This document shows positions 38,173-46,843 of a DNA stretch of 64,000 bases, one piece after another; position 1 is the first letter of the stretch; each line of letters starts with the position of its first letter. The notes beneath the pieces were generated by a model. The model was not told where the DNA came from and ran no database searches. It saw only the letters and a list, made by a program, of their open reading frames with translations. A program made the translations under genes and the position numbers. Origin of the DNA: Candidatus Avedoeria danica (lineage in GTDB: Bacteria; Chloroflexota; Anaerolineae; Epilineales; Epilineaceae); NCBI GenBank assembly GCA_016703025.1, contig JADJCV010000004.1, positions 1,775,412 to 1,839,411 of the forward strand. The letters run 5' to 3'.

Positions 38173-41103
38173 CTAACGCAGTCGGGGCGGACGCCGGACG
38201 GTGAATGCGCGCACGACGAGCGGCAAGTAGACCCGCGGCCCGTGCTCGGGCGAGAGCCCGAACAGGACGGTCGTCGTCGTCCCGTCCGTGACGAAGGCGC
38301 CCTGTTCGGCCGGGCCGGTGACCACCCAGCCGGAGGGCGGCGCGACGCTCACGAAGAAGACGCCGGTCGGGAGGGTCGCACAGACAGGACGGTCCTCGCG
38401 GCTGCGGAGCTGCCGGTAGGTCGTGTGGCGGTCCGTCAGCACGTCGATGAGGACGTCGCTCTGCGCCGCCTCACCGGCGTCGCGGAAGCCGTCGCGGTTG
38501 CGGTCGTCGAACACGTCGACGCAGACCGTTCCTTGCGGGCCGTTCACGGTGGGTTCGGGCGTCGGCGAGAGGGTCGGGGCGCGCGTCGGCGGGAGCGTCG
38601 GGCCGCGGGTGGGCGTGGCGGTCGGACGCGGCGGGCTCGGCGTCGCGCTGGGCGTCGTCGGCGCGCGGGCGCCGAAGGCGAACGTCACGGACGCTTCGGC
38701 CATCGGTGCGCTGAAGTCGTATGCCCGCGCTCCGGAGGCCACGAGGTTGCGCGGCAGCTCGACGAGCTCGAGGCGGTAGGCGCCGTCCGCGAGGCCGCTC
38801 CAGCAATGATCGGGATCGTTCGAGCCGTCCGTCGTCCACGTGATGAAGACGCCCGAGAGCTGGTGCGTCAGCCGAAGCGTTGCCCCGGCCAGGAACCGCT
38901 CGCCGGCGTCGCGCCGGCCGTCGCCGTTGCGGTCGTCGAAGGCGATGATGCACGCCTGGCGGCCGGTAAACGTGGCGGGATCGCGCGTCGGGGTCGGCGG
39001 CCCGCTTGGCGTGTGGGTGGCCGTCACGCCGGGCGGCGTCGGCGTGGCGGAAGGGGTGCGCGGATCGACGGTCGGGCCGTCGGTCGGCGGCGGGACGGTC
39101 GGTTCGGGCGGTCGGGTCGGAGTGGCGCTCGGCGTCGCACTGGGCGTTTGGGCGAGGGCGGTCAGGGCGAGCCACGTGGCCGTGGCGCCCGGCCCTGCCG
39201 ACGCCGTGACGGCCGGCGCCGCGGTCATCGTCGCAATCCAGGCCGAGGTAGCGGTCGCGGCGGCAGCCGTCAGGGTCGGTCCGGCGATGACCGTCGCGGC
39301 GACCTCGGTGCGGAACGCCGCGATCGTGGCCGTGGCGCCGGCGACGGCGGTGGCGGTCTGGGCGATCGGCGGGACCGTGGCCGACGGCGTCGGGGACACG
39401 GACGGCGTCGGCGACAGCGTCGGCACGGCCGAGACCGTCGCGATCGATGTGGACGGCGCTGTGGCGGTGATCGACGGCGTGGCGCTCGAGCCGCCGCCCG
39501 TCGTCGGCGACGTCGGCGGCGTCGGCGACGCGGTCGGGACAGGGGTCAGCGTGGCGGCGAGGCCGATCGCGTAGCTGACGACGAGCGCCGGGCCGCTGGC
39601 GGGATCCGGCGGGGAGGGCTCGCGGTTGTAGACGTCGACGCCGGAGTGCCACGCCGCCAGGTTGTTCTCGTCGGGCAGCGGACCGTCGACCCGGAACGAG
39701 GCGCGGCCCGTCCCGTCGACGCGCGCCTCGAGGAGCGGCAGCTGCGCCGGCGCGAACCCGAACGCGTTCTTCCGCCCGGGCAGGAGGTCGGTCTCCTCGA
39801 GCGAGAGCCCGATCTGGGCCGCGATGGCCGCCGTGCTGACGGTCGTGAACGTGGCATCGCGCCAGCCCGCATCGATCTGCTCGTTCAGCAGGGCGAGCTT
39901 CCACTCGCCGGTCTTCAGGAACTCGTTCGTCTGGCCGATGAGCTCGACGCGCGCGCCAAGGATGTTCGCCTCGGGCGGGATCTCGGACAGATCGAACTGG
40001 ATCATCCCGTAGTGCGGGTTGTCGCCGCGGCCCCACATGCCGGCGTAGATCGAGGCGTAACCCAGGTGGTTCTTCCGGTCGCGCTGCGCCGAGACCTTGG
40101 GCACGTAACCGACGTCGGCGGGCGCGGGCCGGAGCGTGATCGTGTCGAACGACTGGGCGGGCGGCGGCGTCGGCGTCACCGTCGGCGGCGGGCCGGCGTA
40201 CGTCGGCAGCGGCGTCGGGGTGACGGTGGCGTTGCCCGCCAGCCACTGGGCGGCGTCGGTGTACTCCGTCTTGCAGTCGCGCGGGCAATACTTCACGGTC
40301 ACCGTCGCGCGGTCGACGACCTTGATGATCCCTTGCGCCTGGTTCGATTCCTGCGTCGAGAACCGCAGCGGCTGGACCGCCCGGAACAGCGGGAACGATG
40401 CGGCGTCCTCGACGAGCTCGACGAGGATGCCGACCGGATCGGCGTCGCTGACGACGCGAACGGTGATCCGGTCCTTCTTGGAGGCGTCGAGGTTCGCCGC
40501 CGGGTCGCGCGCCGTGATGTCCGCCTGCGCCGCAGCGCCGTAATAAACGTCGGCGTCGAAGGCGACGTAGAGGCCGACGTACCACTCGATTCCGGCGCCG
40601 ATGCCCGAGAACGGACCCTCGGGCCAAACCGCCGACGTGTAGTACGGGCTGCCGCCGGGCGGAATGCCGTTCTTCTTCTCGAACGTGATCGTCTCACAGC
40701 CCACACCACTGTACACGATGCCGTCGGGGTGGTTGACGAACTGCCGGCCGCCGCCCGAGTCCTTGACGAACACGCGGACGAGGTCCTCGAACGAGTGGCA
40801 GTAGATGATGTGGACGGTGTCCGTGCCCGCCGGGAACTCGGTGACGCCGGGGCCCTGCATGCAGTGGTTGTCGTCCAGCTGGGCCTGGTAGGTCTCGTCG
40901 CACATGTGGAGGTGCCAGGCCGGCGTGATGACCGGGGTCGTGCAGTACGGCGGGCAGGCCTGCGCGGCGGCGCGCGGCGGCACGGCCGTGGACACGACGT
41001 CCAGCACGAACAGCAGCGCCGACACCGCAATGCACAGGCCGAGCGGCCCGAGGCGGCGTGCGGCGCTCCGCAGGGGGGCGGAGGGCTGCGGGAAGGTTGC
41101 CAT
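38173..41103 (-). CDS. Large secreted multidomain protein with a Cys-rich N-terminal domain, the shared ~150-aa module, Pro/Thr/Ala linkers and two SdrD-B-like Ca-binding domains
   Basis: Signal peptide, then ..MIQFDLSEIPPEANILGARVELIGQ.., which matches the module in the S8 protein. Two C-terminal FDDRN[GR]DG[RF]RDAGE repeats follow. Confidence 0.75.
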   Translation of the reverse strand: MATFPQPSAPLRSAARRLGPLGLCIAVSALLFVLDVVSTAVPPRAAAQACPPYCTTPVITPAWHLHMCDETYQAQLDDNHCMQGPGVTEFPAGTDTVHIIYCHSFEDLVRVFVKDSGGGRQFVNHPDGIVYSGVGCETITFEKKNGIPPGGSPYYTSAVWPEGPFSGIGAGIEWYVGLYVAFDADVYYGAAAQADITARDPAANLDASKKDRITVRVVSDADPVGILVELVEDAASFPLFRAVQPLRFSTQESNQAQGIIKVVDRATVTVKYCPRDCKTEYTDAAQWLAGNATVTPTPLPTYAGPPPTVTPTPPPAQSFDTITLRPAPADVGYVPKVSAQRDRKNHLGYASIYAGMWGRGDNPHYGMIQFDLSEIPPEANILGARVELIGQTNEFLKTGEWKLALLNEQIDAGWRDATFTTVSTAAIAAQIGLSLEETDLLPGRKNAFGFAPAQLPLLEARVDGTGRASFRVDGPLPDENNLAAWHSGVDVYNREPSPPDPASGPALVVSYAIGLAATLTPVPTASPTPPTSPTTGGGSSATPSITATAPSTSIATVSAVPTLSPTPSVSPTPSATVPPIAQTATAVAGATATIAAFRTEVAATVIAGPTLTAAAATATSAWIATMTAAPAVTASAGPGATATWLALTALAQTPSATPSATPTRPPEPTVPPPTDGPTVDPRTPSATPTPPGVTATHTPSGPPTPTRDPATFTGRQACIIAFDDRNGDGRRDAGERFLAGATLRLTHQLSGVFITWTTDGSNDPDHCWSGLADGAYRLELVELPRNLVASGARAYDFSAPMAEASVTFAFGARAPTTPSATPSPPRPTATPTRGPTLPPTRAPTLSPTPEPTVNGPQGTVCVDVFDDRNRDGFRDAGEAAQSDVLIDVLTDRHTTYRQLRSREDRPVCATLPTGVFFVSVAPPSGWVVTGPAEQGAFVTDGTTTTVLFGLSPEHGPRVYLPLVVRAFTVRRPPRLR

Positions 41104-41158
41104 GGCTCGCGGGTTGAGACGTGCAGGACGGCGCCGGCGTTACGGTCAGCCGATGGAC

Positions 41159-41229
41159 GGATCGGGTGAGGGATCGGGGGAGGGATCGGGGAGGGATCGG
41201 GTGAGGGATCGGGTGAGGGATCGGGCAAA
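41159..41229. repeat. Tandem array of 6 copies of a 12-bp unit GGATCGGG(T/G)GAG
   Basis: Copies start at 41159, 41171, 41183, 41194, 41206 and 41218. The array lies in the divergent intergenic region between the 976-aa gene and clpC. Confidence 0.8.
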
Positions 41230-41335: not shown

Positions 41336-43834
<2,499 letters not shown>

Positions 43835-43837
<3 letters not shown>

Positions 43838-44111
43838 TACCCCGCCACTGGACATGCCTGGGGTGCCCGACAGCGTACGGAGGCCGGAGATTCTGCAGTG
43901 GCAGGGCACTAGTACTCCACCACTGAACATGCTCGTGGCGGCCACCAGAGTAGGGAACCCCTAGAATCCACAGTGGTGGAGTACTCGGAGCACTTGGCGC
44001 GCAGTTTGCGGCGGTGGTCCTGCACGTACGCCAGGGAATCGATCACAGTACGATCGATCACGGTACGCATGTGGAGTTGGTGCAAGATCACAGTGATCTT
44101 GGGTCAACTCC
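43835..44111. repeat. Lower-GC noncoding island holding a duplicated ~75-bp element, a 15-bp tandem direct repeat and a 39-bp perfect palindrome
   Basis: Element copies at 43835-43905 and 43909-43984, each reading CTAGTAC(T)CC(G/A)CCACTG(G/A)ACATGC ... CAGTGG. The second carries the 12-bp inverted repeat ACTCCACCACTG/CAGTGGTGGAGT. Direct repeat ATCGATCAC(A/G)GTACG x2 at 44039-44068. Palindrome GGAGTTGGTGCAAGATCACAGTGATCTTGGGTCAACTCC at 44073-44111. Confidence 0.6.
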
Positions 44112-44187
44112 ACGTGCCGTTTCTAGGGCGACATCCCACCGCGGTCTGCGTCGATATGCTGCGGGCTCACCGAATCGCCTACCGCCC

Positions 44188-45339
44188 CTACCGCCTCTCC
44201 CGCCCCTCCTCGACCACCTCGTGCTCGATGTCCACCCCCCCGCGCCGTCGCCCCCGCAGCCCGCGCGCGATCCGCGGCCCGGTGGGCTCGGGCGCGCGGC
44301 CGAGGAGGTAGCCGAGGCCGGTGACGACGGCGGCGCCGGCGACGACGGCGAGCCAGGCGAGGAGCGGCGTGCTGTCGCCCCCGCCCAGTCCGCCGAGCGC
44401 CGCGGTGAGGCGGTTCACCACGTCGCGCGCCATTCCCGCGACCGCGCCTCCGCCGGTGCCGCCGCCGCCCATCTCCGAGGCCGGCGCGGACGCAGCGACG
44501 AGGCTGTCGGACTGGGCGGTGACGCCGTCCGCCGTCGCTTCGGGCGGTCCGTCGTTGACGATCACGTTGACCGGGGCGTCGAGAACGACGTCGTGCTCCA
44601 CCCCATCGGCCGTGGTCACGGACGATGCGCCGGCGTTCAGCGTCAGCTCGGCGCTGCCGGCGGTCAGGGCCGCGAACGTGACGGTGGCGATGTTGGGGGT
44701 ACCGGTGGACAGCTGGGAAGGGTCGGTGGCGGTCAGCACCAAGGAAAGGCGCAGGCGGCCCGGCTCGAGGCGGTGCTTGAAGTCCGCTTGCGCGCCGCTC
44801 ATGGTCAGCAACGGGTCGACGGTGATCGCGGTCACCGCCACGCGGTCGGCGTCGAAGTGGAGGTCGAGCGCAACGCGCTGCACGGGCGCATCCGGCGACT
44901 GCAGCGCGACCGACACCGCTCGACCGCCCTCGGCCGCCAACATGAGCATCGTCGGCGAGAGCATGACGCGAACGGCGGCCGCGTCGCCGGCCGGGGCCTC
45001 TTCCGTGGCCGCATCCCCGGCGGCGCCGGCCTGCCCCGTGAACGGGGCTCCGAGGCCGGATGTCGGGTCGGTCGTCGGCACTCCGAACGGCATGCCGCCG
45101 AACGCGGGCGTCGGGACGCCGTACGGCGCCCCGCCGACGCCGAGGCCGTTCGGCGCCCCATCGCCGGACGGCGGCGGGTAGCTGCTGCCGGGCAGGTTCA
45201 GCGGCGCCTGGGCATCCGCCGTCGCGCGCGTGCCGACGGCGACGAGCACCGCCAGGCACACCACTGCGAACAGGAACGGCCGCCCGGCCACCCGTCGCTC
45301 GTCGGACGAAGGCGCCGGCCTAACGGGATCGGATCGCAT
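44188..45339 (-). CDS. Membrane-anchored protein with cohesin-like domain and Gly/Pro-rich N-terminal region
   Basis: N-terminal TM or signal segment, then a beta-domain (..VALDLHFDADRVAVTAITV..ATVTFAALTAGSAELTL..), a C-terminal TM helix and a basic tail. Confidence 0.5.
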   Translation of the reverse strand: MRSDPVRPAPSSDERRVAGRPFLFAVVCLAVLVAVGTRATADAQAPLNLPGSSYPPPSGDGAPNGLGVGGAPYGVPTPAFGGMPFGVPTTDPTSGLGAPFTGQAGAAGDAATEEAPAGDAAAVRVMLSPTMLMLAAEGGRAVSVALQSPDAPVQRVALDLHFDADRVAVTAITVDPLLTMSGAQADFKHRLEPGRLRLSLVLTATDPSQLSTGTPNIATVTFAALTAGSAELTLNAGASSVTTADGVEHDVVLDAPVNVIVNDGPPEATADGVTAQSDSLVAASAPASEMGGGGTGGGAVAGMARDVVNRLTAALGGLGGGDSTPLLAWLAVVAGAAVVTGLGYLLGRAPEPTGPRIARGLRGRRRGGVDIEHEVVEEGRERR

Positions 45340-45922
45340 ACGGCAGGTAGATGTGCGGCTGCGGCACCGGCGTCGGCTCGATGATCGCGAACTCGGCGGC
45401 CTCGAGATCGGCTGCGATCGGCTCGTTGGCGGTGTTCGTCAGGAGGAGCTGCCGGAGGACGACGACCGCCTGACCGGGTGCGATCGCCCGGAAGCGGAGC
45501 GTGGCCAGGTCGCCGTTGCCGCCGACACCGGGGACCGACGAGCCCGGCGGCTGCGGCAGCGTGTACACCAGGAAGTCGATCGAGTGGTCCGTCACGCGCG
45601 GCGGGATCGTCTCGATCTGACGGCCCGTCGTGCCGAGCCAGTCCGTCGGCTCGACGGCCTCGAGCTCGACGAGCGCCTCGTCCCAGTCGATGCCGGCCTG
45701 GTAGCCGGCCAAGTCGGTCACCCCGCTCACGCCGAGCGTCAGCGTGACCCAGCCGCCCGGGGCGATGCTCTGCTCCGACGGGGTCAGCCGTGCCGTCGCA
45801 CCCTGCGCCGTTGCCGCCGGCACGACGTGCAGCAGCAGGGCGAGCGCCACGCCAACGACACCGAGGCACGCGGCGTGCGCGGCCCGGTTCGAAGCGGAAG
45901 AGGCGGGGGTCTGTGGCTCCAT
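45320..45922 (-). CDS. Secreted cohesin-like domain protein
   Basis: Inferred start MEPQTPASS.. with a signal peptide. Cohesin-like segment ..APGGWVTLTLGVSGVTDLAGYQAGIDWDEALVELEAVE..LATLRFRAIAPGQAVVVL. Confidence 0.5.
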   Translation of the reverse strand: MEPQTPASSASNRAAHAACLGVVGVALALLLHVVPAATAQGATARLTPSEQSIAPGGWVTLTLGVSGVTDLAGYQAGIDWDEALVELEAVEPTDWLGTTGRQIETIPPRVTDHSIDFLVYTLPQPPGSSVPGVGGNGDLATLRFRAIAPGQAVVVLRQLLLTNTANEPIAADLEAAEFAIIEPTPVPQPHIYLPYAIRSR

Positions 45923-46063
45923 CGGCGCCGGCGATTGTAGTGGGGCGGCGGAGACAGGGGCAAGCGCCGATCGGGTGGCTCGCCGTCGCGCCGCTTCGTC
46001 GTCGCCCTTCGGTGCGCTATGCTCCGGCGCGCTGCGCGACACCCCCAGCCGGAGAATCGCCCG

Positions 46064-46843
46064 ATGCGGATCCTCTTCACCCTGATCACCACCGCGGCCG
46101 TGGCGGCGCTCGCGGCGTCGACGGCGGGCTGCAACGCCGGCGGCGCGGACGGAGACGGTGCGCACGACGTCGGCACCACGGTCGGCGACCGGTCGACGGC
46201 GGGCGTGCCGGCGGATGCGATCGGCGGCGCACCCGGCATCGTCGATGACGGCGGATCTCCTTCCGCTGCGCAGCCGGAGGCGGCGGCTGCGGTGAACGAC
46301 TTCGCGGCAGCCGAGGGCATCGAGCCGGGGTCGGTGACGGTGGTGGAGGTCAAGCCGGTCACGTGGCCCGACAGCGCACTCGGCTGTCCGTCGCCCGGCG
46401 AGATGTACACGCAGGCGCTCGTGCCGGGCTACGAGGTCCGGCTCAGCGCCGGCAACAAGACGGGGGTCTACCACACGAACCGCGGCAAGAGCGGTGCGAT
46501 CGCCATCCGTCGCTGCGGTGCGGCGACGATCGCGTCAAGCGACGATCCCGTCGTGCTCACCCGGATCCGCGCGGACCTCGCCGGCCGGATCGCACCGGGC
46601 ACCCCCGTGGTTCTCGAGCGCAGCGGGCCGGTGGCGGCGACGACCCTCGTCTGCCCGGGCACGCCGGATGCGCCGGCCGATCCGAGCGCACCGACGCTGC
46701 AGTTGGCCGTGTCGGAAGCGCTGTTCCGCGTCGGGTCGGATCGACATGCCTACCGGGTGTGGAATGGGCAGTTCATCTACTGCGGGATCGCGCCGCCCGC
46801 CGAACCGGTCGGCGCCGGAACGCCGACGGTGGCGACGTCGTAG
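46064..46843 (+). CDS. Lipoprotein of unknown function
   Basis: MRILFTLITTAAVAALAASTAGC lipobox. Confidence 0.55.
   Translation: MRILFTLITTAAVAALAASTAGCNAGGADGDGAHDVGTTVGDRSTAGVPADAIGGAPGIVDDGGSPSAAQPEAAAAVNDFAAAEGIEPGSVTVVEVKPVTWPDSALGCPSPGEMYTQALVPGYEVRLSAGNKTGVYHTNRGKSGAIAIRRCGAATIASSDDPVVLTRIRADLAGRIAPGTPVVLERSGPVAATTLVCPGTPDAPADPSAPTLQLAVSEALFRVGSDRHAYRVWNGQFIYCGIAPPAEPVGAGTPTVATS

Follow-up and report, generated by a model that had tools for sequence, protein, structure and literature searches.

The island that follows clpC in Candidatus Avedoeria danica is, over positions 43834-43987, very probably the product of two insertions of a CTAG-targeting, non-coding family of miniature inverted-repeat elements (MITEs) that is dispersed in uncultured Ardenticatenales, and its remainder a spacer that carries a hairpin. 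The family is apparently undescribed, and the kind of element is ordinary. Positions are those of the window, by which we mean the whole 64,000-nucleotide stretch that was analysed. Read in this way, the island and the genes beside it contain the following features.

41336..43837, plus strand: clpC, encoding an 833-aa Clp ATPase; it lies upstream of the island, and its stop codon is where the insertion took place.
43835-43837, plus strand: the clpC stop codon TAG, within the CTAG target site 43834..43837; the stop is preserved through insertion.
43834..43912, plus strand: MITE copy 1 (W1), 79 nt with both flanking CTAGs; arms 43834-43850 and 43896-43912 around a core of ~45 nt.
43909..43912, plus strand: the CTAG common to copies 1 and 2; period 75 nt.
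43909..43987, plus strand: MITE copy 2 (W2), 79 nt with flanks; perfect 15-bp stem of 43911-43925 with 43971-43985.
43988..44187, no strand given: species-specific spacer.
44038..44067, plus strand: 15-nt direct repeat ATCGATCAC(A/G)GTACG, two copies.
44067..44117, plus strand: 51-nt hairpin, then CGTTTCT; candidate clpC terminator or 3'-end hairpin.
44178..44207, no strand given: 9-nt tandem repeat CCTACCGCC, 3.3 copies, which spans and duplicates the stop codon of the 367-aa gene.
44188..45291, minus strand: convergent hypothetical gene of 367 aa with no Pfam family; its stop codon, empty here, bears a MITE copy in relatives.

The initial annotation of this DNA, made from its letters, had described a drop in G+C content and the lack of a credible ORF, and both descriptions agree with our measurements. 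G+C is 0.56-0.64 over 43850-44150 against about 0.70 in the flanks, there are no Pfam matches, and no frame of 43988-44190 has a coding-like composition. The downstream gene had been called cohesin-like, which was mistaken: the adjoining gene encodes the 367-aa protein (367 aa being the length from the true start of the 383-aa ORF), and the sub-threshold Cohesin match belongs to the next ORF. A tRNA/tmRNA scan of the island returned nothing, and a promoter and terminator scan of 43600-44400 returned no sites. Strains with exactly this ClpC, represented by wastewater-metagenome contigs and the MAG GCA_963852785.1, carry the same island. Three scattered polymorphisms separate them within it, at the density of the surrounding 22 kb.

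The two units lie head to tail and start, as had been described, at 43834 and 43909 with CTAGTAC(C/T)CC(G/A)CCACTG(G/A)ACATGC. Allowing up to 3 mismatches, this 24-mer matches nowhere else in the window and gave 0 matches in shuffled sequence. The complementary arm expected at the other end is present as well, since each unit ends in CAGTGG(C/T)(A/G)G. The terminal inverted arms, CTAGTACCCCRCCACTG ... CAGTGGYGGGGTACTAG, are 15-17 bp long, flank the core of ~45 nt and are found in every copy of the family. In W1, 15 of 17 arm positions are complementary and two are A.C mismatches. The stem of W2 had been described as perfect over 12 bp; it is indeed perfect, but it is 15 bp long. The predicted fold of W2 has an energy of -36.5 kcal/mol (z = -4.4) and that of W1 about -33 kcal/mol. 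At 79 nt with flanks, the units are under the ~300 bp that bounds a MITE, and they contain no ORF and no Pfam match. The family consensus is CTAGTACCCCACCACTGAACATGCTCGTGGTGGCTACCAGAGTACGGAACCCGGAGAATCTGCAGTGGTGGGGTACTAG. Among 18 copies compared, none deviates in the core motif ACATGC or in several further positions of the core, and pairing is kept in 92% of the stem cells. The net gain per copy at a CTAG is 75 nt.

Copies of the unit are dispersed over many unrelated places. An exact 21-mer, GTACYCCRCCACTGRACATGC, was searched in a collection of 185,579 genomes and was found in one other genome only, the Ardenticatenales MAG SJ541 (GCA_020853525.1), which has it at 5 places spread over 4 contigs. 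With a relaxed pattern 14 metagenome stretches were added, most of which came from one activated-sludge sample. Among its matches, two (in the fetched loci L013 and L020) were set aside as chance matches rather than elements, and at a third (L017) only a 5' fragment is present. That fragment is 34 nt long and abuts the TAG stop of a gene of about 190 codons (L017 1425-1458 and L011 5657-5690); it is cut at the same point in both samples and represents a decayed copy. A covariance model built from seven copies (R1) recovered full 79-nt copies at 55-104 bits in the fetched loci, together with further copies that the patterns had missed, and scored W1 at 62.9 bits and W2 at 95.6 bits. SJ541 contains at least 8 full copies and one fragment, spread over 6 contigs, and the family occupies at least 20 loci in all, in related Ardenticatenales (Chloroflexota) MAGs and metagenomes from wastewater. 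Further copies had been named by the initial annotation as the thing to look for; they exist in related genomes and metagenomes but not elsewhere in the 64-kb window, where R1 with filters off found none beyond W1 and W2. The source genome, counted within the window, therefore has two. Copies that are nearly identical may stand in different surroundings, as do L007a and the copy in L024, which are 99% identical and differ in their flanks. The locus L008, at a contig end, has the left flank of L009 and the right flank of L023 joined across the element, ~130 nt from the contig end. It was considered as a sign of a larger repeat and is treated here as an assembly-graph artefact, probably caused by the repeat.

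All copies stand between two CTAGs or one-base variants of it, and empty sites have CTAG or NTAG once. In the flanking CTAGs the outer C and G never vary (18 of 18 copies), and the inner TA shows occasional decay towards G or C; the right flank of W2 itself has decayed to CTCG. CTAG is a scarce tetranucleotide. The 64-kb window has 12 CTAG sites where a Markov model expects 45 and base composition 169. Four of the 12 lie in the island, and several others serve real genes as stop codons. Outside the elements, CTAG is found mostly at gene ends (e.g. 2160, 20083, 23492 and 57158), where it constitutes an unoccupied potential target; TTAA occurs once in the whole window. The terminal TAG of the element is the stop of a long ORF (GC3 ~0.9) at about 10 of 17 loci, so often because CTAG is rare and mostly found at gene ends. 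The symmetry of the element's ends restores the stop codon whichever way round the element inserts, and the ClpC protein is left unchanged; it ends in ...EAT* in filled and empty genomes alike. Read-through of the clpC TAG, in which the 75-nt period would keep the frame, was considered and rejected, because the unit occurs in both orientations and in other contexts and because relatives without the element end ClpC at the same codon.

The mobility of the family is evident from orthologous sites that are filled in one genome and empty in another. SJ541 and the source species are 92-96% identical in the DNA of the flanking genes, and they differ at three clean sites and at a fourth, the stop of the 383-aa gene. 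Site (a) is the junction between a CotH-like gene and asnB. SJ541 has GGCG CTAG[71 nt]CTAG[72 nt]CTAG GCATCGTG there, and the empty form GGCG CTAG GCATCGTG is found in L030 (GCA_963852785.1) and three other samples; identity of the flanks is 92% across 3-4 kb, and what the BLAST blocks have in common is exactly the 4 nt of CTAG. At site (b), the stop of an SdrD_B-like gene, SJ541 (L037), L039 and L040 have GCG CTAG[71]CTAG CGG and the window has GCG TTAG AGG. Site (c) is the clpC stop itself, which has two copies in the window and is empty in SJ541, L039 and L040 (GACG TAG GCC) and also in the more distant L026-L028; the right flank of this site is not alignable, and the whole spacer differs from that of the relatives. 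Site (d), the 383-aa gene stop, belongs to the intergenic region of site (c); it has one diverged copy in SJ541 and is empty in the window. These differences indicate that insertions have taken place in both lineages since their split. At (b) and (c), two of the three clean sites, the allele without an element has TTAG and GTAG, respectively, in place of CTAG, and the base that differs is a synonymous third position. We infer that a synonymous mutation creates or removes the CTAG target at these two sites.

The filled site (a) has a further peculiarity. In SJ541 the right arm of the copy (L007 3975-3990) ends 6 nt before the GTG start of asnB, where the native Shine-Dalgarno-like AGGTAAGG of the empty site (L030) is replaced by the arm sequence GGTGGGG, which is predicted to be base-paired. 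This replacement may affect the translation of asnB in SJ541.

The surroundings of clpC vary in other ways among these genomes. A 9-nt tandem repeat, CGACCGAGG (2.6 copies, 43812-43834), gives ClpC extra C-terminal residues relative to SJ541. Just upstream of the conserved promoter-like/5'-UTR block of clpC, a 12-nt tandem repeat, GGATCGGGTGAG (5.7 copies, 41155-41225), is missing in SJ541, L039 and L026, each of which has a different sequence there, and these differences indicate that the upstream intergenic region of clpC is also turning over rapidly. From 43838 onward there is a synteny breakpoint relative to L026, L027 and L028 (ClpC identity 79-93%). In these three, clpC is followed on the same strand by a 2-oxoacid dehydrogenase E1 gene (E1_dh), which is not present anywhere in the 64-kb window, and L028 has a Na+/H+ exchanger gene on the opposite strand between the two. 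In the source species and SJ541 it is the convergent 367/383-aa gene that follows clpC, and not E1_dh. Large, lineage-specific, secreted-looking proteins cluster around clpC (38173-41103, 44188-45291, 45320-46474 and neighbours). They have no or faint Pfam matches (SdrD_B faint; Cohesin E = 2.4e-4, below the cut-off), and their gene order is kept across Ardenticatenales relatives. Upstream of clpC in L039 and L040 (9911-10043) lies a member of another MITE-like family, unrelated to the present one; it is ~133 nt long, and its terminal inverted repeats, CAGCTGAAGCTGGCCGGCTGG, are perfect over 21 nt. This second family also lies beside copies of the present family in L008, L009 and L025, is not at the same site in SJ541 (L037) and has no copy in the window.

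How the two units came to stand side by side, and what kind of unit they are, can be weighed from these observations. The initial annotation spoke of a duplicated element of ~75 bp. If one 75-nt element had been duplicated in tandem on the spot and its two copies had then diverged, the head-to-tail order of the units, their register at a 75-nt period and their gap-free alignment would be accounted for. W1 and W2 are, however, only 70% identical to each other, and they are 87% (W1 and the L019 copy) and 92% (W2 and the L021/L022 copy) identical to copies in contexts unrelated to the clpC island. They belong to different subfamilies, which also speaks against the insertion scar or local duplicate that had been offered. 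The pairs at L007 and L018 moreover combine other subfamilies than W1 and W2, and the pair at L007 too has a CTAG in common, which is what nested insertion into a regenerated target predicts. A local duplication is accordingly very improbable, and the closer kinship of each unit to a copy at another locus argues for two independent insertions sharing one CTAG. Equally hard to sustain, and the least probable of the readings considered, is a structured small RNA gene or cis-acting RNA that is selected in two tandem copies at the 3' end of clpC. The folding with covariation that the initial annotation called for gave it a partial backing: the hairpins are stable, the invariant ACATGC and core positions are compatible with an RNA, and three stem positions change on both sides across copies with complementarity kept, and a second, internal helix is weakly supported. 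Selection for an RNA or a single-stranded-DNA hairpin could be an alternative cause of the both-sided changes. These changes follow subfamily lines, and the same pattern is expected if the subfamilies derive from different parent ISs. The Rfam scan that had also been called for gave no match in 43000-45000 (E up to 10) and none at gathering thresholds in the whole window. The elements are missing after clpC in SJ541, L039, L040 and L026-L028, and there is no promoter-like or terminator-like site. The copies take both orientations relative to the abutting gene (8 to 4) with no clear bias, stem mismatches on the presumed transcribed strand are A.C in 5 cases against G.U in 2 and thus show no enrichment of wobble pairs, and the strain-level polymorphism of the island is at the background rate. 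Nothing points to a strand-specific RNA function, and the small structured RNA gene among the original candidates lacks support, there being no Rfam match, no retention at the orthologous locus, no clear orientation bias and no wobble bias.

The stem pairing has a bearing on another reading as well, that of REP/REPIN-like hairpins spread as single-stranded DNA by a RAYT (an IS200/IS605-type Y1 transposase), with the hairpin as the selected unit. The elements are extragenic, hairpin-forming, ~80 nt long, at gene 3' ends and sometimes in tandem, and their stem complementarity is kept while the sequence changes. The 17-nt arms CTAGTACCCCACCACTG, on the other hand, have no internal stem and are not self-palindromic, whereas a REP unit is expected to be an imperfect palindrome that carries a conserved GTAG-type tetranucleotide at its 5' end. 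CTAG bounds the element strictly on either side and empty sites have one NTAG, a pattern that resembles a target-site duplication; to our knowledge, RAYT/IS200-type elements make no such duplication. No Y1 transposase is found in the window and fetched loci, and the symmetrical arm changes by subfamily also fit different parent ISs. We regard this reading as quite improbable. A little less so, and still unlikely, is a view in which elements with symmetrical TAG ends home to stop codons, colonising those CTAGs that a genome of 70% GC, depleted of CTAG, tolerates, with their hairpins co-opted, or in which mobilisation is by something other than an IS630- or IS5-type DDE transposase. The hairpins would then serve to stabilise transcripts from the 3' UTR or to attenuate expression inside operons, the copies after clpC and just before asnB being examples, and such a mobilisation would fit the covariation of the arms and the lack of a detectable parent IS. 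The MITE among the original candidates is the one that the evidence favours for 43834-43987, on account of the dispersed copies in relatives, the CTAG flanks and the filled and empty orthologous sites; every property of MITEs that was tested on the copies is found in them, save an autonomous partner.

A MITE of this kind would depend for its movement on a DDE transposase that acts in trans, belongs to the IS630 or IS5 family and has its gene elsewhere in the genome. A Pfam scan of about 40 window genes found no transposase, nor was one found in ~300 kb of fetched loci, and a search of the window and these loci for a larger or autonomous IS with matching terminal repeats returned MITE copies only. 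The element may be delimited in two ways, as a 73-nt element GTAC...GTAC whose insertion would duplicate the central TA in the style of IS630/Tc1-mariner, or as a 71-nt element TAC...GTA whose insertion would duplicate CTAG in the style of IS5. Because the element ends in G...C, its flanks fit TA duplication within CTAG and a 4-nt duplication of CTAG equally well. In either case an insertion would create a second CTAG, and hence a fresh target, in a CTAG-poor genome, which explains tandem pairs that share one CTAG. The CTAG at 43909-43912 would have been regenerated by the first insertion and then used by the second. Both copies would be transcribed together with clpC and form stable hairpins in its 3' UTR, under little or no selection for a function; such transcribed hairpins might stabilise or attenuate the mRNA.

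Several known systems resemble the family in part. IS630/Tc1-mariner MITEs such as RUP of Streptococcus pneumoniae and Correia/NEMIS of Neisseria are likewise short and non-coding with terminal inverted repeats, and like RUP and Correia the new family is dispersed, mostly intergenic and hairpin-forming if transcribed. RUP is 107 bp long and Correia ~100-155 bp; the new family, at 73-79 nt, is shorter than either. Unlike RUP and Correia, it has no partner IS630-type transposase or IS in the window and fetched loci. Its termini are GTACCCCACCACTG...CAGTGGTGGGGTAC, of which GTACCCCACCACTG has no recognised relative, its host is an uncultured lineage of Chloroflexota, and its target preference appears absolute (18 of 18 copies). 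As listed in Table 1 of PMC2577343, which cites Tenzen & Ohtsubo 1991, IS630 duplicates TA within CTAG. Every copy of the new family has the matching form C-TA-G...C-TA-G, as TA duplication gives with G...C ends. The IS5-type MITEPsy1 of Pseudomonas syringae is 100 nt long, has 18-nt terminal repeats and duplicates CTAG/YTAA (PMC3189936). IS5-family MITEs with a 4-bp CTAG/YTAR duplication, of which MITEPsy1 is one, resemble the new family in size class, in the length of the terminal repeats (~17 nt) and in having CTAG on either side of each copy. IS5-group termini typically begin with GG or GA. The new family begins with TACCCC inside CTAG and, again unlike the IS5 group, has no IS5-type parent in the window and fetched loci. 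The IS630-type and IS5-type precedents both fit the flanks. REP, BIME and REPIN sequences are also extragenic palindromic repeats at gene 3' ends that form clusters and keep the complementarity of their arms, and they too would be expected to give an mRNA a 3' hairpin; the new family differs from them in arms that are not self-palindromic and in a CTAG resembling a target-site duplication, which makes a REP/REPIN-RAYT mechanism less likely. Its genomes are also not known to have a RAYT. Rho-independent terminators and terminator-like repeats, SPRITE of S. pneumoniae (PMC10969869) among them, have in common with the island a stable hairpin after a stop codon, and 44067-44117 is followed by UUUCU. 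The island differs from these in having no canonical U-tract, and MITE copies occur between co-directional genes as well.

The spacer between W2 and the convergent gene has a different character. Its alignment to the element or to the 60-nt spacer of SJ541 scored no better than shuffled sequence, and a BLAST search of 43988-44190 against all other fetched loci and plasmids gave no match. The 39-bp palindrome that had been called perfect does exist here but is imperfect (16 Watson-Crick, 2 G.T and 1 G.G positions), and it is the centre of the 51-nt hairpin, which has 25-nt arms that are 84% complementary. The hairpin contains 23 pairs, of which three are G.U on the plus strand, and one G.G mismatch. 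Its predicted energy is -34.4 kcal/mol (z = -7.5) on the plus strand and -26.8 kcal/mol (z = -6.3) on the minus strand, the former being the more stable because the three wobble positions are G.U there. The stem and U-tract of an intrinsic terminator are not both found at 44067-44117, where the tail is CGUUUCU with 4 U and the terminator scan finds nothing. The hairpin is the strongest candidate for a 3'-end structure of clpC and most likely marks the 3' end of the clpC mRNA. The spacer as a whole is probably a fast-evolving, species-specific sequence that contains the clpC terminator hairpin.

Two further readings, which start from original suggestions, would give this region a larger role. 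In one of them, clpC and the 367-aa gene would share the whole island as a bidirectional terminator complex. The two genes are convergent, there are three strong hairpins in 350 nt, and the 51-nt hairpin is very stable on both strands and followed by CGTTTCT on the plus strand. The empty terminator scan speaks against it, as do the MITE hairpins, which have no U-tract and elsewhere lie inside operons (the L007 copy before asnB is one), and the spacer, which is not kept in SJ541, where a different GC-rich hairpin follows clpC. The proposal applies at most to the 51-nt hairpin, for which it is possible even in the absence of a proper U-tract and which is already part of the explanation that we prefer; for the rest of the island it does not hold, and a terminator complex spanning all of it is improbable. 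No more probable is that the GATCAC cluster and palindrome at 44038-44117 form a protein-binding site (of a regulator or recombinase, or of partition type) or the end of an unrecognised mobile element. The 15-bp tandem direct repeat that had been reported was found at 44038-44067, and with 44086-44098 it brings four GATCAC half-sites into 60 nt, two of them direct and the others an inverted pair GATCACAGTGATC. The region is AT-richer than its surroundings, and the second MITE-like family in sister genomes makes further families plausible. Yet no gene start lies nearby to be regulated, and the 15-mer, allowing up to 2 mismatches, matches here only, 6 of 100 shuffles also reaching two matches. 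Other fetched loci and plasmids have no copies, and the stretch is not kept in SJ541 in spite of 92-96% DNA identity.

An apparent structured RNA island thereby becomes an annotation, that of a CTAG-specific MITE family in the Ardenticatenales, filamentous Chloroflexota of activated sludge, and the family should be masked in searches for non-coding RNA. The general understanding of MITEs is unchanged by it. The family helps to explain the rapid turnover of intergenic regions and the contig breaks in Ardenticatenales MAGs. Since four sites differ between genomes at 92-96% DNA identity, the family has been active recently, and this activity makes it usable as a strain or species marker. It also provides an example of how the availability of targets affects the distribution of a mobile element, in that the depletion of CTAG funnels insertions onto TAG stop codons and the new targets that arise there lead to tandem pairs.
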